A stretch of DNA of 64,000 bases from an uncultured Panacagrimonas sp. (GTDB lineage: Bacteria; Pseudomonadota; Gammaproteobacteria; Nevskiales; Nevskiaceae), in assembly GCA_963975245.1 (NCBI GenBank), contig CAXBFJ010000009.1:24048-88047 (forward strand). Direction: 5' to 3'. How positions within the stretch are numbered: the stretch's first letter is position 1; each line of letters starts with the position of its first letter. Positions 5,772-64,000 of this stretch are shown here, piece after piece. A program made the position numbers and the translations under genes. Under the pieces are notes generated by a model. It was not told where the DNA came from, did not search any database, and saw nothing but the letters and a program-made list of their open reading frames with translations.

Positions 5772-6731
5772 ATGAGTTACTCGCGCATTGTTGGTACCGG
5801 CAGCTACCTGCCGAAGAAAGTTGTCACGAACCAGGATCTGGAGAGTCGTATCGACACTTCAGACGAATGGGTTTTTCAGCGCACCGGCATTCGCAGCCGT
5901 CGCGTCGCGGCCGAAGGCGAGCAGACCTCCGATCTGGCCGTGCAGGCGTCCAGAATGGCGATGGAAATGGCTGGGGTCACCGAGGCCGATATCGATCTCA
6001 TCGTGGTGGCCACCACCACGCCGGACATCGTGTTTCCGTCCACCGCCTGCATTCTTCAGCGCAAGCTCGGGATCAAGCAGGGCGCGGCCTTCGACGTGCA
6101 GGCGGTCTGCACCGGTTTTGTCTATGCACTCGCGGTGGCAGACAAGTTCGTGGCCTCGGGTCAGAACAAATGCGCGCTGGTCGTGGGCGCCGAAGTCTTC
6201 TCGCGTCTGCTCGACTGGACCGACCGGCGCACCTGCGTCCTGTTTGGTGATGGCGCGGGCGCGGTCATTCTCAAGCCATCGGAAAAGCCCGGAATCTTGT
6301 CCACGCATCTTCATTCGGAAGGCTCGCAGGGCGACATTCTCTGTGTGCCGGGGACGGTCCACGGCGGCGAGCAGCAAGGCCACCCGTTTGTGAAGATGGA
6401 TGGTCAGGCTGTGTTTCGCTTCGCGGTTCGGGTGCTTGATCAGGTTTGCCGCGAAACGGTCGAGCACAATGGCATCACAGGCGCGGACATCGACTGGCTG
6501 GTTCCGCATCAGGCCAATATCCGCATCATCATGGCCACCGCGCAGAAACTGGGCATGCCGCCGGAGCGGGTGGTGACCACGCTCGAACACCAGGGCAATA
6601 CCTCGGCGGCCTCGGTGCCGCTGGCGCTGGACCTGGCCGTACGTGATGGCCGGATCAAACCGGATCAGCTGATCATGCTGGAAGCCGTAGGCGGCGGCAT
6701 GACCTGGGGATCGGCGCTTCTACGCTGGTAG
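5772..6731 (+). CDS. fabH: 3-oxoacyl-ACP synthase III
   Basis: DVQAVCTGF (catalytic Cys), [22 protein letters not shown]. Confidence 0.95.
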
Positions 6732-6755
6732 TGCGCGTCGTTTGACCGGACTCTG

Positions 6756-7313
6756 CTACTCAGGGACGCCCGTGCCTTCCAGCAGTTCCAGCGCCAGTTC
6801 CTTGATGTCGTCGGCAAAGTTGTCGGCATATCCGAGCCATATCATGTGCACCTTTCCTTCAGGGGTTAGCAGAAAGGTCGCGGGTAGTTTCCAGGGACCA
6901 TAGCGTTGCATGGCGATGCCAATCGGGTCGCCGATGATCGGGTACGAGACCGGGTTGACCTCCAGAAACTTGCGCGCCTTCGGAATGTCGCGATCCACAT
7001 TGACTCCGATGATCTCGAAGCGGTCGCCCCAGCCCAAATCTGCGATCTCGCTGCGGATGCGATCGTACTCCGGCATGGATTGGAGGCAGGGAGCGCACCA
7101 AGTCGCCCAGAAATCCACCGCAACCACTTTGCCGCGATAGTCAGACAGTTTGGTGCCTTTTTTCCCACTGAGAATCAGGCCTGCAATCTCCGGCGCTTCG
7201 GAGCCAAAGGGAATCAGTTCAGAGCGCTGCTGGGCTTGCGCCGTGGCAGCAAAGAACATCAGCAGCAAACCGTAAATTCCACTCTTGAGTTTGGGCATAA
7301 GTCGCATCGGCAC
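6756..7313 (-). CDS. TlpA/ResA-family thiol-disulfide reductase
   Basis: VDFWATWCAPC thioredoxin motif, LPATFLL, N-terminal signal/anchor. Confidence 0.9.
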   Translation of the reverse strand: MPMRLMPKLKSGIYGLLLMFFAATAQAQQRSELIPFGSEAPEIAGLILSGKKGTKLSDYRGKVVAVDFWATWCAPCLQSMPEYDRIRSEIADLGWGDRFEIIGVNVDRDIPKARKFLEVNPVSYPIIGDPIGIAMQRYGPWKLPATFLLTPEGKVHMIWLGYADNFADDIKELALELLEGTGVPE

Positions 7314-7482
7314 AACGGGCGCGGCAAAATGGAGTCACACCCTAGCCTTTCTCTCCCGATTCGGGAATTGCGAGTGCGCATATCTCAAGCTGCTTCTCTC
7401 AAGTGATGCCCATCATCTTCCCGGCCAACGCGAGCTGCCGGCAAACTGATGGCGCGCAAACACCTCTTTCAGCCACGACCCG

Positions 7483-8142
7483 ATGAGCACCCTGATCCTT
7501 CTGCGCCACGCACAGGCCTCGTTCGGTGCGGACAAGTACGATGCCCTGTCGGATCGCGGGCACATGCAGGCCAAGATTCTGGGCCAGTTCTGGGCTGAGC
7601 GCGCACCCCGGTTCGATCAGATTTTAGTGGGGCCGCGGGACAGGCATCGTCTGACGGCGAAACTCGCTCTGAGCCCCATCGGCCTGAATTGGCAGGTGGA
7701 GGCAACGCCGGAGCTCGACGAGTTTGCCGAGGGCCAGCAGATTCTGGCTTCGGTCAAGCAGCGCCAACGTCACACGTTGGACGGCAAGGAAGCCGCGCGC
7801 CAGTACGCGCGCGAGATCGACGACTGGTCCGCGGGCCGCGTCGAGCTTTCCGGGATACGCTCTGCGGCAAGTTTCCGCGCCGATGTCGGGCGCTGGCTGC
7901 ACGACGCAACAACGCAGTCCAAGAAATCAGGTCAGTCCTTGCTGGCCGTGACTTCCGGCGGTGTTATTGCAGCCGTCATGTGCATCGTGCTGGATCTGCC
8001 GGACGCGAAATTGTCCGCTTTCATGAATGCCATTCACAACGCGTCCCTGACTCAGCTGGCGTTTTCGGCCGGCCGCAGCCCCTCGCTGCAGTCATTCAAT
8101 GTCGCAGGACACTTGCCGGACGACATGCTGACGCGCTTGTAG
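7483..8142 (+). CDS. histidine phosphatase family protein
   Basis: LILLRHAQASFG (RHG-like) at the N-terminus; VTSGG and NASLT motifs. Confidence 0.85.
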   Translation: MSTLILLRHAQASFGADKYDALSDRGHMQAKILGQFWAERAPRFDQILVGPRDRHRLTAKLALSPIGLNWQVEATPELDEFAEGQQILASVKQRQRHTLDGKEAARQYAREIDDWSAGRVELSGIRSAASFRADVGRWLHDATTQSKKSGQSLLAVTSGGVIAAVMCIVLDLPDAKLSAFMNAIHNASLTQLAFSAGRSPSLQSFNVAGHLPDDMLTRL

Positions 8143-24044: not shown

Positions 24045-25121
24045 TCAGAGCTGTCGATAGAGCCGACTACCATCAAACACCGCGTTCGGGTCGAAGCTGC
24101 GTTTGAGTCGTCGTTGAATATTCAGTTGCACCGGGCCAGGTGCGGAAAAAACCTCATGTCCTTCGGGCGGATTTCGAAACGCTGTGGCATGTCCGCCGGC
24201 TGATGCAGCTGCCGTTCTGATTTTCTCTGCCGGTTCCGCACTGAACAACCAACGTTGCTGGCCCTGCCATTCGAGTAGCGTGGATTCGCTCAGATGCATC
24301 GGCGGGGTTTCGGCAGGAAGCGACAGACGCCAAAGTGTTTGCTCGTTGCTGTGTTGGAAGAGTTCATGTGTTTGATCACGCAGGCGCTTCCAGAATGCCT
24401 CAGCCTCCTCGGCAGGCATCAGCTCGCCCGCAATGTGGTCCTGTGCAAGCTTTACCGCTGCTGCTGCGCCGGACAGGCGCAGGTAACATTTTCCTGCATG
24501 CCAGACGCTGGCCGTTATGGGCAGCGTTTTCGGCCGCAGCTCATCAAACATAGCCAAAGCCTGACGCTCATCGCACCTGAGCACGAGTGTGCTGCTGCTG
24601 ACGGGGCGAGGCATGACCTTGAGGGATACCTGCAAGATGATGCCCAGGGTGCCCATCGACCCTGACATGAGTCTTGCAACGTCATAACCGGCGACGTTCT
24701 TCATCACTTGGCCGCCAAACTTGAGGATCTGGCCTTCGCCGTTCATGACCACGGCACCTAAGAGGCTGTCCTTCAACGCGCCGCCCGACATGCGACCGGG
24801 GCCGCTCAGTCCAGCGGCGACTGCGCCGCCAATGCTGGCCTGCTGATCAAAATCCGGCGGCTCGAATCCCAGTTGTTGATGTCGCTCTGCCAGCGCTTGA
24901 TCAATTTCATTCAGGGGCGTGCCACAGGCCGCGGTGATGACTAACTCTGCCGGGTCGTAGTTGATGATGCCGGCGTAAGCGGCGACATCCAGGAACTCGA
25001 AATGACCAGCATTGCCATACCAGTGCTTGCTGCCGTTGCCCCGGATTCGAAGTTTCTGTCCCTTGCCTGCTGCGTGAAGCAATTGCTCACGGATGGCGGC
25101 CAATCTGTTGTCGTTGGCCAT
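24045..25121 (-). CDS. glcE: glycolate oxidase FAD-binding subunit
   Basis: YDPAELVITAACGT, FGGQVMKNVAGYD, EWQGQQRW, FDPNAVF. Confidence 0.92.
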   Translation of the reverse strand: MANDNRLAAIREQLLHAAGKGQKLRIRGNGSKHWYGNAGHFEFLDVAAYAGIINYDPAELVITAACGTPLNEIDQALAERHQQLGFEPPDFDQQASIGGAVAAGLSGPGRMSGGALKDSLLGAVVMNGEGQILKFGGQVMKNVAGYDVARLMSGSMGTLGIILQVSLKVMPRPVSSSTLVLRCDERQALAMFDELRPKTLPITASVWHAGKCYLRLSGAAAAVKLAQDHIAGELMPAEEAEAFWKRLRDQTHELFQHSNEQTLWRLSLPAETPPMHLSESTLLEWQGQQRWLFSAEPAEKIRTAAASAGGHATAFRNPPEGHEVFSAPGPVQLNIQRRLKRSFDPNAVFDGSRLYRQL

Positions 25122-58873: not shown

Positions 58874-61800
58874 TCAGAGGGCCGCAGCGGAATCTGCGCG
58901 TTTCAGGCTGAGCTGCTGATGCTGAGCCTGTTCAAGGTAGGTGGCAGCGCCAATACGTCGGAATATTTCCACCGCATTTTGCAACTCGGCCGACGCTTGA
59001 GTCGGCGTGTCGATCTCTGCGAGGGCGAGATGAATTTTTCCGATCTCCAGGGCTAGGCCCATTCGGACGGCTTGCTCCAGTCCAGTGCGAAGATGCTTGC
59101 GGGCCCGCTCCTTGCGGCCGATCAGCACTTCCCTGCGCGCTTCGATCAAAGCCAGCGCAGGCCGGCCAATCGGAATCAGGCGGGAGAACCCGCGCATGCT
59201 TCTGGCTGTCATGCCCAGCAGGCGAATGGCGTCCTGGTGTCTGCTGGTTTGTGTTGCCGCACTGCGCAGCACTTCTTCGATGCACAGATAGGAACTGACC
59301 TGCAGCCAGACCAGCGGGGCCTTGGACATGGCGACTTCAATGGTTTCCCGGACGAGGTCAAAGGCCTGATCGTGCTCGCCAGCGCGGTCCAGCGCCGCGC
59401 CGTGCAATCCGCGCGTGAACAGATCGGCAGCCGCATCCGGCCGGGCGGTCAGGGACTCGCGGGCGCGTCTCAACAGGCGGAGCACCGCCTGCGGATCTTT
59501 CGCGTTGCCACTGCGCAGCATCACCCCGGCAAGGCCCGCTGAGCCCCAGGCCAGGAACAGGGGGTTGTCGGTATCGGTATTTCGCTCCAACGCGGTGTTG
59601 AGGATTTCCGCCCCATCTGCCAACTGGCCGCGATAGGCCATGACATGTCCGAGGGCTGACATGACATTCCACGCGCGGGTGCGATCCCCCATGCTGTCGT
59701 AGCGATTCAGGGCGTCGCGCAGCCAGCGCTCGGAATCCGTCCACCGGCTGCCTTGTGCCAGCGCAGAGCCGCGCGCCAGACGCACCCAGGCACTGACGCC
59801 CGAATCTCGTGTGGCATCGGCTGCTTCGATGGCGGCATTGAAGGTGCGCATCGTGGTCTTTTCGCGGCCCATGCCGGATTGCAGCAGCGCGTACCAGGCG
59901 ATGGCGCGGGCTTGCTCGGGGCTGCCCAGGTTCTCCGCACCGGACAGGCGCTCAAAGCGAAGCGTGGTGTAGGCCAGCGCAAGTGGGTCATTGTCGTAAT
60001 AAAGAATGTCCGGCAGCAGGTCGTAGGCCTTGACAGCCATGCGCAGGCGTTCGGGGTCACGCAGGTGGCCGGGCGCGCGCCGCGTCAGTCGCAAGCCGCG
60101 CAGCACCAGTTCGCGCATCAGGGCCCAGACGCGGCCGGAGGTGCTGCCAGGAATGAATTCACCGAATGCGCGCAGGGCTTCTTCAATGTAGCGACGGCTG
60201 GCACGCTCGTCGCCCATCCGGTGATGGGCCTGCGCCAGGCCTAGCTCCGGTGCCCAGGCGTGGGCATGCCCCTGCAGGCTGGCGCTGCGTCCGCGCAGGC
60301 TGCGCGCGCTGGAAAAATGCTGTGCAGCTTCGCGATTGGAGAACGTCGTGAGTGCTGCATCACCCGCCTTGATTCTGGCTTCGAAGGCCTCTGGCCAGTT
60401 CTCAGCCAGTTCCCAGTTGCGCGCCAGCTCAGCCAGATGGTGGGTTGGGTGCGAGTGAGGCTGGTCTTCCAGCCACTGTGCGAACCGCGCGTGAAGCTCG
60501 CGACGCCTGCGATACGGCAGGCTGTCGTAGGCGGCGTCCCGAATGAGGGCGTGGTGAAACTTGTATTCAGCGGCGTCATCGTCCTCAACCGCGCTGATGA
60601 AGCCGCGTTCAGTCAGCAATCCGAGCTGTTCGCGGGCACTGCTTTCATCGTCCGGATGAAGATTGAGCAGCGCATCGAGTCCGAAGCTGACGCCGATGAC
60701 GGCGGCGATGCGCAAACTGATCTGTGCCTTGGGGTCGAGGCGATCCAGGCGGCTGGCGATGACGCCGTTGAGCGTATCGGGCAGGCGTGCCATGGAAGAC
60801 TGCTCCGCCTGCTGCGAAATCAGGTCCGCTTGTCCACCCTGCAAGAAGAGGCGGCCACTGTCGATGGCGGCCGCTGCAAGTTCGCGACAGAACAAGGGAT
60901 TGCCGCCGCTGCTGTTGGCAATCCATTGCGTGGCCCGTTCTGACAGTGAAGTAGCACCGATGGCCTGCTGCGCGACCCGCGCGCGGTCGGAGTCCGGCAA
61001 GGGGCCCAGCGCAATCTGATGCATACCCACGGATGACAATTGCTTGAGCACATCGGGTGGCGCGCTGGCGTCCAGTTCGCGGGTGCTGATCAGCAGCAGC
61101 AGTCCGCTTTCACTGTCGCTGGCTTCCTGGGCCAGTCGGCTGAGCAGAGCCCAGGAAAGTGAATCCATCCAGTGCGTGTCTTCAATGCACAGCAGCATGG
61201 GCGAGCGTTGCGCGGTGCTGGTGATCAGGCGGCAGATCGCGTCACGGGTGCGCAGGGCTCGCTCGGCGTCGTCGGTCTCAGGGACCTCAGCCAGCGGCTG
61301 ACCAAGGAAGCGCTGAAGGTAAGGGTCGAGCATTGCGGCAACGCCGGACTCGGTATCGCGAGACAGGGTGAGCAACTGGCGAACCACTGGTACCCAGCGG
61401 GTTTGCGGCGCGGTGTCGCCAGATTCTGCCGACGCCGTCAGGCTGATCACCGACAATGCCTCGCCACGCGCCACGACTTCGCGCACCAGACGGGTCTTGC
61501 CGATGCCGGCTTCGCCAATCAGTGCCATCAGCCCACCACGACGCTGACTGACAAGGGCATTGAGGCGGCTATTGAGAATGTCCAGCTCTGGGTCCCGGCC
61601 GTAGACCGGCGCGCGATTCGCCGCGCGCTTGCGCCGCTCGTTGCTGGCGCTGCGTTTGGAACCTGCGCGGAAATGGGTTGCCGCAGCTTCCAGGCCCTTG
61701 ACCTCGATCAGGCCTTCCAGCACGTAATTGACGCGATCCTTTGAAAGGTCGCGCGTCAATTGATCGCACAAGGGGCCCGGGGCCGCGTTCTGCATCAGGC

Positions 61801-62938
61801 GCGCGGCAAAATTCATGGTGTGGCCAATCAAGGTGTAGTGGCTGCGATGATCATTCCCGATCAGGCTGCAGAAGACGCGACCGGTTGCCACGCCCACCCC
61901 GCAGCTGATGTTGCGACGCGACAGGGCATCGACAATGTCCATCGATGCCAGCGCAGCGCGGCTGGCGTCATCTTCGTGAACGCGTGCGAGTAGGCCGAAA
62001 GCAATGATGAAGACCGGGCCCTTGTCATCCACCACAAATTGCAGAATGGTGCCTTCATGCCGGGCGACCACCTGTTGCACGGTGCGCGCTGCAACATGCG
62101 CGTTGCGGCCATCGAGAATGCCGTTGTGCAGCAAGCCGGGGAGCCGGGCGAAGATCACGCTGGGCCGCCGGAATTCAGCGAGCCAGTTGGAGTCCAGCTG
62201 ATTCAGATTGTGATGGACCGGCTCGCTCACGTGCGCCAATGCCAGTGATTCAGGGCATTCACGTGGGTGCGCGAAGGCACTCGTGCTTGCATGTCTGATG
62301 GGCTTGCAGCTGCGTACCTGCAAAATGCCATCGCCGGAGCGGCTGACCGTGATGCAGCCGTCGGCCAGCGCCCAGGCTTCAGGGGAGACGATCAGCATAT
62401 TGTTCTGGGCCAGCGCGTCCGCCCGTCCGACCTGTTCAAATGCCGGACCACTGAGCAGGCACTGCCAGCGACCAAACTCGCCGCCGACACGGTGTGCGGC
62501 AAATGCGCCCGCGCCGAGTGAAAAGCGCATCAGCGGCGTGTCGGCCTGGCTTCGCGCATTGTGTTTTTTCAAGGCATTCAGCGCTGCCGAGCTGGCCCGA
62601 TTGATGGCGCCAGACAAATCCGCTTCGATGCTGGTCGCCGGCCACAGCACGAACAAGGCGTCACCGCCAAAGACCACGACGTCGCCGCCCTCTGCTGTCA
62701 ATTCGGCAATGAGCTGGCCGATGCTGTTCTCGATCAGCTCATTGGCCAGCTCCACCCCCTCTGGCCCCCCGGCCACCAGACGTTCCACCTTGCCGGTGAA
62801 ACCCACGACATCGACAAACACCAGTGCGCCGGAGATGGTCCACTCTTCAAAACCCGGCTTTACGTCCGCGCCCAGTGCATAGCGTTCGCGTAGGAAGCGC
62901 GGCAGGAAGCGGCCCAGAGAATCAGATGTGATACTCAT
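58874..62938 (-). CDS. soluble adenylyl cyclase (ADCY10)-like protein: two class III cyclase domains + STAND/AAA NTPase + TPR-like helices
   Basis: FVDVVGFT, GGDVVVFGGDA, DDKG, GVATG.VF, TLIGHTMNFAARL, EVKG; YGRDPEL, GEAGIGKT (aa 475-482), LCIEDTHW, GNPLF, YKFHHALIRDAAY. Start trimmed to MSITSD at 62938 (~1354 aa). Confidence 0.9.
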   Translation of the reverse strand: MSITSDSLGRFLPRFLRERYALGADVKPGFEEWTISGALVFVDVVGFTGKVERLVAGGPEGVELANELIENSIGQLIAELTAEGGDVVVFGGDALFVLWPATSIEADLSGAINRASSAALNALKKHNARSQADTPLMRFSLGAGAFAAHRVGGEFGRWQCLLSGPAFEQVGRADALAQNNMLIVSPEAWALADGCITVSRSGDGILQVRSCKPIRHASTSAFAHPRECPESLALAHVSEPVHHNLNQLDSNWLAEFRRPSVIFARLPGLLHNGILDGRNAHVAARTVQQVVARHEGTILQFVVDDKGPVFIIAFGLLARVHEDDASRAALASMDIVDALSRRNISCGVGVATGRVFCSLIGNDHRSHYTLIGHTMNFAARLMQNAAPGPLCDQLTRDLSKDRVNYVLEGLIEVKGLEAAATHFRAGSKRSASNERRKRAANRAPVYGRDPELDILNSRLNALVSQRRGGLMALIGEAGIGKTRLVREVVARGEALSVISLTASAESGDTAPQTRWVPVVRQLLTLSRDTESGVAAMLDPYLQRFLGQPLAEVPETDDAERALRTRDAICRLITSTAQRSPMLLCIEDTHWMDSLSWALLSRLAQEASDSESGLLLLISTRELDASAPPDVLKQLSSVGMHQIALGPLPDSDRARVAQQAIGATSLSERATQWIANSSGGNPLFCRELAAAAIDSGRLFLQGGQADLISQQAEQSSMARLPDTLNGVIASRLDRLDPKAQISLRIAAVIGVSFGLDALLNLHPDDESSAREQLGLLTERGFISAVEDDDAAEYKFHHALIRDAAYDSLPYRRRRELHARFAQWLEDQPHSHPTHHLAELARNWELAENWPEAFEARIKAGDAALTTFSNREAAQHFSSARSLRGRSASLQGHAHAWAPELGLAQAHHRMGDERASRRYIEEALRAFGEFIPGSTSGRVWALMRELVLRGLRLTRRAPGHLRDPERLRMAVKAYDLLPDILYYDNDPLALAYTTLRFERLSGAENLGSPEQARAIAWYALLQSGMGREKTTMRTFNAAIEAADATRDSGVSAWVRLARGSALAQGSRWTDSERWLRDALNRYDSMGDRTRAWNVMSALGHVMAYRGQLADGAEILNTALERNTDTDNPLFLAWGSAGLAGVMLRSGNAKDPQAVLRLLRRARESLTARPDAAADLFTRGLHGAALDRAGEHDQAFDLVRETIEVAMSKAPLVWLQVSSYLCIEEVLRSAATQTSRHQDAIRLLGMTARSMRGFSRLIPIGRPALALIEARREVLIGRKERARKHLRTGLEQAVRMGLALEIGKIHLALAEIDTPTQASAELQNAVEIFRRIGAATYLEQAQHQQLSLKRADSAAAL

Positions 62939-63047
62939 GGCGCCTTCGCAATGCTGCGGGATTGGAGACGATGGGCGGGCACGGGGTCTCTGTGGGCAAG
63001 GCCGAAGTGATGAAGATGTGCAGGATACGGATTTTGAGGGAGCAGGG

Positions 63048-64000
63048 ATGGCAGGTACGGGCAAGAGGGTATTGATTTTGGGAGGTGGTGTCGCCGGCAT
63101 GAGCGCTGCCCATGAACTGATTGATCGCGGCTTCGCGGTCACCGTCCTTGAGGCGCGGGATATCCCCGGCGGCAAGGCACGCAGCATGGCGAGTCATTCG
63201 GACGGCTTGCCCGGCGAGCACGGGTTCCGTTTTTTCCCCAGTTTCTATCAGCACCTGACCCACACCTTGCAGAACATCCCCTACCGGAATAACCGGCTGG
63301 GTGTGCTCGGCAATCTGGTGGACACCACGCGTGCGGGTGCAGCGAGATTCGGCAAGGATCTGATCATCCTCAACTCGGGATTTCCTGATACGCCGGACGC
63401 CTTCATGGAAATGGCGGATGATCTGGTGGGGAATCCTTTCGGTCTCAGCGCCGAGGAAACCCGCTTTTTTGGCGCGCGCATGATGCAGATTGCCAGTAGT
63501 TGTCACGAGCGTCGTGTTGAGGAATACGAAAAGATCGGCTGGTGGCAGTTCATCGAGGCGGACCGATTTTCTGACAACTATCGCAGTGTCCTGGGATCGA
63601 CAACCCGATCCCTGGTGGCCGCTGATCCACGCAAGGCCAGTGCGCGCACCATTGGCGACATCACCCTGCAGGCCGTCATGGGGCTGAGTACGCCAGGCAA
63701 AACCTATGATCGCGTGCTCAATGGCCCCACCAGCAAGGTGTGGATTGATCCCTGGCTGGAGCATCTGCGCGCGCGTGGGGTGGACTACCGCTTATCCTGC
63801 CCGGTCACCGCCTTGCAGGGCGATGCGCGCGGGCTGTGCGGCGTCACCGCCAGTACCCCCAGCGGCGAGCAGACATTCGAAGCGGATTGGTATGTCGTGG
63901 CCTTGCCGGTGGAAAAAATTGCTGGGCTGCTGACCGATGACCTGCGCGCGGCTGATCCGGCGCTGGCGGCCGTTGATGGTTTGTCACAGCACGTTGCCTG
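63048..64000 (+). CDS. 3'-truncated FAD-dependent oxidoreductase (amine oxidase / carotenoid-desaturase-like family)
   Basis: Absent from the ORF track because it runs off the window. MAGTGKRVLILGGGVAGMSAAHEL...EARDIPGGKARS, LPGEHGFRFFP, LNGPTSKVWIDPW. Confidence 0.88.
   Translation, partial: MAGTGKRVLILGGGVAGMSAAHELIDRGFAVTVLEARDIPGGKARSMASHSDGLPGEHGFRFFPSFYQHLTHTLQNIPYRNNRLGVLGNLVDTTRAGAARFGKDLIILNSGFPDTPDAFMEMADDLVGNPFGLSAEETRFFGARMMQIASSCHERRVEEYEKIGWWQFIEADRFSDNYRSVLGSTTRSLVAADPRKASARTIGDITLQAVMGLSTPGKTYDRVLNGPTSKVWIDPWLEHLRARGVDYRLSCPVTALQGDARGLCGVTASTPSGEQTFEADWYVVALPVEKIAGLLTDDLRAADPALAAVDGLSQHVA

Follow-up and report, generated by a model that had tools for sequence, protein, structure and literature searches.

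A soluble adenylyl cyclase-like protein of Panacagrimonas with complete catalytic residues and altered base-site and bicarbonate positions

A stretch of DNA from an uncultured Panacagrimonas sp. (64,000 nucleotides, positions 24,048 to 88,047 of contig CAXBFJ010000009.1; "the window") contains an open reading frame at 58874..62938 on the minus strand. Its translation is a 1354-amino-acid protein (P0001) with a core of two cyclase domains, C1 and C2, followed by a STAND ATPase and tetratricopeptide (TPR) repeats. This layout resembles that of mammalian soluble adenylyl cyclase (sAC). We found that the protein has all four catalytic residues of class III cyclases, that a Gln replaces the base-site Lys of sAC, and that both bicarbonate ligands of sAC are replaced. 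The most likely reading of these features is an active, mainly cyclic AMP (cAMP)-forming bacterial sAC-type (class IIIb-like) cyclase that would lack the bicarbonate switch and would be controlled by its STAND/TPR part. By its sequence matches, the protein is a member of a known and very large bacterial family in which Gln at the base site is a common minority variant, one with precedents among other class III cyclases. From the residue map, the predicted fold, and the conservation and distribution of the residues, we infer activity, product and regulation.

Residue map and predicted fold

We aligned the protein with human sAC by three methods. A phmmer search of Protein Data Bank (PDB) sequences matched human sAC (4clf/4cm2) in two stretches, one per catalytic domain, with E values of 7e-27 to 1e-26; the chain numbering of these entries is the native sAC numbering (D47 lies within FVDISGFT). 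The second method was a MAFFT alignment of 120 homologues with two pieces of sAC. The third was a profile from 61 family members, which matched sAC residues 16-469 as one stretch (E 5e-93). All three gave an identical residue map. C1 (approximately residues 30-200; 62339..62851, minus strand, as are all codons below) aligns to sAC 39-201 and provides the metal-binding Asp pair. C2 (approximately residues 250-430; 61649..62191) aligns to sAC 283-433 and provides the base-contact and transition-state residues.

The D/D/N/R set of class III cyclases is complete. D43 (GAT, 62810..62812) corresponds to metal ligand 1 of sAC, D47, and D93 (GAC, 62660..62662) to metal ligand 2, D99; both are invariant in the 61-sequence alignment. 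The transition-state pair N412 and R416 is kept as N376 (61811-61813) and R380 (61799-61801), which lie in the nearly invariant motif NFAAR (61799..61813). In the phmmer alignment, R138 takes the place of K144, the pyrophosphate (PPi)-binding residue of sAC.

The base site is only partly kept. T369 (61832..61834) aligns with T405 of sAC, the class IIIb Thr, and Q300 (CAA, 62039..62041) aligns with the base-site Lys, K334. The protein therefore has the second residue of the canonical adenylyl cyclase pair (Lys with Asp or Thr) and not the first, and its Gln is also not the Glu found at the first base-contact position of the guanylyl cyclase pair. No other register supplied a base-site Lys: the segment from Q300 to the near-invariant DDKG (FDKG in sAC) is ungapped, and the sole Lys near the base site, K306, pairs with sAC K340.

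Both residues of the sAC bicarbonate site are changed. The bicarbonate-docking Lys, K95, is V89 (GTC, 62672..62674). R176-L177 of sAC is G171-R172 (62423..62428), so that the switch Arg is gone and an Arg stands one residue later, within helix 165-175; no role is noted for L177 of sAC. Registers that would bring a Lys to the base site, or an Arg to the position of R176, were rejected, as all three methods gave the same ungapped register between fixed motifs. Two more positions differ from sAC. V45 (62804-62806) replaces a conserved Ser (sAC S49) after the first metal Asp, and R265 (CGG, 62144..62146) replaces N298. Judged by comparison of the C1 and C2 motifs, R265 is the C2 position pseudo-symmetric to the metal ligand D47.

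These assignments agree with a first-pass annotation of the window, which had been made by manual alignment on the DKG motif. It had described the catalytic residues as kept (D43, D93, N376 and R380, with T369 equivalent to T405), had placed Gln300 at the K334 position (codon 62039-62041), and had matched Val89 to K95 and Gly171 to R176 with an Arg one residue later. Each of these was recovered in the three alignments, and the CAA codon was confirmed in the window sequence. The annotation had also called for a more rigorous alignment to sAC; there, no Lys falls at the specificity site.

The predicted fold is that of sAC. An AlphaFold2 model of residues 1-440 (mean predicted local distance difference test score, pLDDT, 93.2; predicted template modelling score, pTM, 0.92) has strands and helices across residues 31-200. 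The best 24 Foldseek matches to the model were all human sAC, with template modelling (TM) scores of 0.81-0.84 and a root mean square deviation of ~3.2-3.7 Å over ~460 columns. In the model, C1 and C2 of one chain form an sAC-type pseudo-heterodimer. Pfam detected C2 only (PF00211, class III nucleotidyl cyclase; 30.5 bits, cut-off 21.9); C1 was not detected by Pfam and was recognised through the sAC alignment.

We propose that the two cyclase domains, carried on one chain, pair as a pseudo-heterodimer that has one active site. In C1, D43 and D93 would hold the two metal ions, and the GFT loop together with R138 would bind the polyphosphate. In C2, N376 and R380 would stabilise the transition state, and T369 and Q300 would hold the base. 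A second, pseudo-symmetric pocket, without equivalents of K95 and R176, would not support bicarbonate switching of the sAC type, and the level of activity would probably depend on the STAND ATPase and TPR module at the C terminus.

Distribution of the variant residues

We scanned 1.8 billion cluster representatives with HMMER, using the 440-residue cyclase core. There were 13,023 matches at E<=1e-3 and 1,386 at E<=1e-30. These counts concern the core, whatever the order of domains around it; of the 150 representatives listed, nearly all are proteins of full length. Unless stated otherwise, the residue counts below are from the best 150 of the 50%-identity representatives. The group of P0001 itself has only two representatives (P0001 and P0007), and the next relatives are at most 40% identical.

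We found that Gln is common at the base site. The residue at the K334 position was Lys in 100/150 representatives, Gln in 35/150 and Arg in 8/150. The first-pass annotation had called for a survey of how common Gln is among homologues; by these counts the substitution is less unusual than its reading assumed. At the K95 position, Lys was present in 100/150 and missing in 50, with Val in 3/150. Arg at the R176 position was present in 8/150 representatives and absent from 142/150. By these counts R176 does not characterise the bacterial sAC-like family, and G171 in the protein from the window therefore says little. The majority type, K/K/T (Lys, Lys and Thr at the K95, K334 and T405 positions), made up 84/150 representatives and 116/268 surveyed proteins.

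A FastTree tree of 262 sequences requires at least 27 changes between Gln and other residues at position 300, which indicates that the Gln state was gained or lost many times. The full D/D/N/R set was present in 60/67 proteins with Gln at 300, 145/146 with Lys and 49/49 with other residues (254/262 together). Its retention in 60/67 Gln-type proteins suggests that these proteins are still selected for catalysis.

In raw counts, Lys at 89 and Lys at 300 were associated (odds ratio 9.8, Fisher p 9e-17). We make no claim that these two pseudo-symmetric lysines co-evolved, as the association was not significant when phylogenetically independent pairs were compared on the tree (median p 0.6, 8 supported pairs). 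With phylogeny ignored, Arg or Lys at 265 was more frequent in proteins without K89 (30/107) than in proteins with it (14/155; Fisher p 8e-5).

Several other patterns were seen in the survey. V45 occurred in 20/262 proteins, of which 17/20 are Gln-type, 8 of them outside the clade described below (phylogeny ignored). Six proteins (P0037, P0045, P0066, P0106 and others) have Glu together with Ala or Gly (E/A or E/G) at the two base positions. These relatives are candidate bacterial sAC-type guanylyl cyclases, because Glu with Ala or Gly is the pattern of known guanylyl cyclases. A giant protein of 5195 amino acids, P0121, has four separate cyclase-core stretches (E 6e-78), indicating several sAC-like cores on one chain.

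The substitutions in the protein from the window are shared by its closest relatives. The nine closest database proteins, one of them named Nevskiaceae, are 53-68% identical to it, and the nine-protein clade is monophyletic with a FastTree support of 100. V45, V89, R265 and Q300 are present in 9/9 clade members, and R172 is likewise fixed. The second base contact is Thr, with Ser in one member. Because V89 and Q300 are kept across all nine members at this level of identity, they are not a chance lesion. The sister of the clade, P0136, has Lys at 300 and is already without Lys at 89.

The closest copies sit in genomes recorded as Panacagrimonas sp. We surveyed orthologues across 81 sampled genomes from the same bacterial family (that is, the taxonomic family). 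Orthologues were found in 6/10 genomes of the genus of the window, with Gln300 in 6/6 and Lys89 in 0/6; residue 89 is Val in five and Ser in one (L012). Other sAC-like copies in the taxonomic family (L015-L021) have K/T, H/G, R/G, R/S or C/A at the two base positions. The pairs seen within this group are thus K/T, Q/T, Q/S, H/G, R/G, R/S and C/A, and by this tally its base site is unusually variable. Two of its genomes each hold two different sAC-like copies.

Product and regulation

On balance, we expect that the enzyme still makes mainly cAMP, although it may be less strict in its choice of purine. This expectation rests on the retained adenine-contacting Thr and on the way in which the lost Lys acts in sAC, which is through water only. 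In human sAC, K334 "recognizes ATP base (via H2O)" (PMC12867704), and Thr405 makes contact with adenine (PMC12250328). Class IIIb is defined in part by a Thr where the substrate Asp would otherwise stand (PMC2613629). One passage in the literature cites Rv0386 for an "alternative substrate-binding mechanism" (PMC3466318). The first-pass annotation had proposed that the product may not be cAMP, or not only cAMP. We found no positive support for this, given that Gln is common in the family, that T369 is kept and that the K334 contact is through water. The known Gln-bearing example among characterised class III cyclases, Rv0386, is said, in work by Castro et al. from 2005, to carry Gln/Asn and to act mainly as an adenylyl cyclase, with some guanylyl cyclase activity on the side.

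Several observations weigh against cAMP as the main product. Lys at the base position is the classical ATP-specifying residue (PMC4215837), and its exchange for Gln could have changed or relaxed the choice of nucleotide, so that the enzyme would make cyclic GMP (cGMP), a pyrimidine cyclic nucleoside monophosphate (cNMP) or a mixture. We consider this rather unlikely. It would fit the variability of the base site inside one bacterial family. It would also fit the soluble guanylyl cyclase (sGC) of Dictyostelium, an sAC homologue that makes cGMP (PMC8684759), from which it follows that the sAC scaffold can change its product, and the PDB title of 4ust, which records GTP turnover by sAC in crystals. 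Outside the clade, the second base contact is changed in 39/58 Gln-type proteins (29 Ala, 8 Gly, 2 Val). The combination of Gln with Ala, Gly or Val hints at a coordinated remodelling of the base pocket, so the substrate of Gln-type proteins may differ, and the Gln-type members of the two-domain family are known from sequence alone. However, guanylyl cyclases have Glu and not Gln at this site (PMC4215837), the adenine contact T369 is retained here, K334 of sAC acts through water only (PMC12867704), and the Gln of Rv0386 reportedly goes with mainly adenylyl cyclase activity. The first-pass annotation had drawn an analogy to Pycsar enzymes. The matches to PycC were weak and partial (the best reached 30.2 bits over residues 320-383, about 65 residues and not full-length), and no Pycsar-type effector gene adjoins the cyclase gene. 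We therefore rejected membership in a Pycsar or other defence system and do not uphold the analogy. A further step from a changed product would be that the Gln-type branch (about 1/4 of a family that has well over 1000 50%-identity clusters) is a distinct functional class, giving a signal other than plain cAMP, be it cGMP, a pyrimidine cNMP or a mixture, and switched by STAND/TPR rather than by bicarbonate. This we regard as doubtful; if it were so, the Panacagrimonas clade with V89, R265 and Q300 would be one tractable example. A very improbable reading is that the protein is not a working cyclase and that its core only binds nucleotide and provides the STAND/TPR part with a sensor or scaffold. 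The Pseudomonas aeruginosa class III cyclase-like ATP-binding protein 6yii is among the structural matches, and the Pfam score is low, with C2 alone detected. In contrast, 6yii matches the model much less well than sAC does (TM 0.59 vs 0.84), the metal Asp pair, the Asn/Arg pair, the phosphate-loop Thr and the basic residue of the PPi site are all present, and the catalytic set is conserved in the clade and in 254/262 surveyed relatives.

As to regulation, the loss of the sAC-style bicarbonate switch is well grounded. The bicarbonate site of human sAC consists of K95 and R176, and bicarbonate breaks the R176-D99 salt bridge (PMC12250328). With Val (V89) for the docking Lys and Gly (G171) for the switch Arg in the pocket, this mechanism should not be able to operate. 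Salmon sAC (K95N) and sea-urchin sAC (R176N) have lost bicarbonate regulation and are controlled by pH instead (PMC12867704, a 2026 PNAS paper). The first-pass annotation had described a bicarbonate-insensitive enzyme. The part of this claim that concerns control of the sAC type stands, since both ligands are gone and sACs that lost a single ligand are insensitive. Insensitivity as such is less secure: the absence of R176 is normal for bacteria, and a response to CO2 is possible. All prokaryotic class IIIb enzymes examined responded to inorganic carbon, which was attributed to CO2, and the CO2 response of Rv1625c and Slr1991 survived mutation of the substrate Lys (PMC2613629), so insensitivity to inorganic carbon is not readable from the Lys alone. 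In addition, R172 and R265, both fixed in the clade, could give the pocket positive charge. It is thus conceivable, though we think it unlikely, that the protein senses inorganic carbon by another route, either as CO2 or as an anion held by R172 and R265. This would be compatible with the other readings and does not exclude them. The enrichment of Arg or Lys at 265 in proteins without K89 (Fisher p 8e-5, phylogeny ignored) is consistent with such a route. So is P0077 of Chloroflexus sp., which also lacks Arg at the R176 position; a Chloroflexus cyclase, not necessarily P0077, is activated by bicarbonate (PMC11006738). On the other hand, sACs without one of K95 and R176 are already insensitive to HCO3- (PMC12867704) and both are gone here, and neither the link between K89 and K300 nor the enrichment at R265 was shown to be independent of phylogeny (independent-pairs median p 0.6).

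Gene context and known systems

The open frame that encloses the cyclase gene extends from 58874 to 63187 on the minus strand, and its likeliest start is the ATG at 62938. This ATG has a GAAGG stretch before it. Most of the DNA upstream of it belongs to a divergent flavoprotein gene, and a start at the next upstream ATG would overlap that gene. Residue 1 is also where the alignments with homologues begin, among them one with an orthologue of 95% identity. This start gives the same residue numbering as the first-pass annotation. The Pfam domains of the protein are Guanylate_cyc (307-423), AAA_16 (445-613) and weak TPR repeats; the same set was found in all but a few of the 120 full-length homologues listed. 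The STAND/AAA_16 ATPase (residues 445-613; 61100..61606, minus strand; AAA_16 E 1.2e-19) has the P-loop GEAGIGKT, with additional weak Pfam matches to NACHT and NB-ARC. The C-terminal TPR-like region (approximately residues 870-1354; 58877..60331, minus strand) has weak Pfam TPR matches, and the family profile matched TPR structures over profile positions 870-1220. We rejected membership in the NCBIfam family TOMM_kin_cyc, as the match reached 171 bits against a cut-off of 706 and covered C2 and the ATPase part only.

Upstream of the cyclase gene, a flavin amine oxidase-type gene (63048-63998, plus strand, running off the window end) is transcribed divergently at a distance of ~110 bp. The downstream neighbours encode a 4HBT thioesterase, PlsY, BirA and CoaX (type III pantothenate kinase). 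At the locus of a 67% identical orthologue in another Panacagrimonas genome (L002), the divergent amine oxidase gene is kept (6263-7909, minus strand) and the downstream gene encodes a short-chain dehydrogenase/reductase (SDR). No gene resembling a cNMP effector was found among the neighbours of the cyclase gene in the window or in L002. The genome of the window has five further genes with class III cyclase domains and seven with cNMP-binding domains; the latter are possible receivers of the signal.

Two groups of these other cyclases in the same genome have unusual motifs. In the membrane-anchored class III cyclase at C4:101070-102572 (minus strand), the base residues are the canonical Lys/Asp and the two metal Asp are present. 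Judged by eye, the transition-state Arg of this cyclase is apparently replaced, with VNTACLLQS where N-x-x-x-R is expected. At C2:522120-524818 (plus strand) and C2:554258-555607 (minus strand) there are three paralogous cyclases of ~450 amino acids with multi-span membrane N-termini, two of them in tandem. In the motif IKDYAGDG of these three, the Lys precedes its usual place, counted from the second metal Asp, by one residue.

sAC is the textbook bicarbonate and CO2 sensor, and this property is often called ancient. Of the bacterial relatives surveyed, hardly any has the switch Arg, ~1/3 have no docking Lys, and ~1/4 carry Gln in place of the base-site Lys. If the variants are active, bicarbonate control and strict choice of ATP would be traits of sub-branches and not of the whole family.

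Compared with known systems, the protein is most like mammalian sAC (ADCY10, PDB 4CLF/4CLL). The two share the C1-C2 pseudo-heterodimer fold (TM 0.84), the residues D47, D99, N412, R416 and Thr405 (sAC numbering), and a C-terminal P-loop NTPase followed by TPR-like repeats, seen here as AAA_16 and TPR matches. They differ in K334 (Gln), K95 (Val), R176 (Gly), S49 (Val) and N298 (Arg), and identity is ~23%. The sea-urchin and salmon sACs are likewise sAC-type enzymes without K95 or R176 (PMC12867704), but they are eukaryotic, keep K334 and have lost one ligand only. Pycsar PycC has the class III cyclase fold in common with the protein; unlike it, PycC is single-domain and homodimeric and is encoded beside a cNMP-activated effector. 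The mycobacterial protein Rv0386, compared by description, likewise joins a class III cyclase to a STAND-type ATPase, and its substrate Lys is reportedly replaced by Gln. It differs in having a single, homodimerising cyclase domain, Asn as the second specificity residue, and a C-terminal helix-turn-helix (HTH, LuxR) domain rather than TPR repeats. The domain order of two cyclase homology domains (CHD), AAA and TPR is shared with the Chloroflexus sAC-like enzyme, Leptospira LA_4008 and Myxococcus MXAN_4545 (PMC3789758). Within this bacterial two-CHD/AAA/TPR group, the majority type is K/K/T, including P0077 of Chloroflexus sp., whereas the protein described here belongs to a minority clade with V/Q/T.

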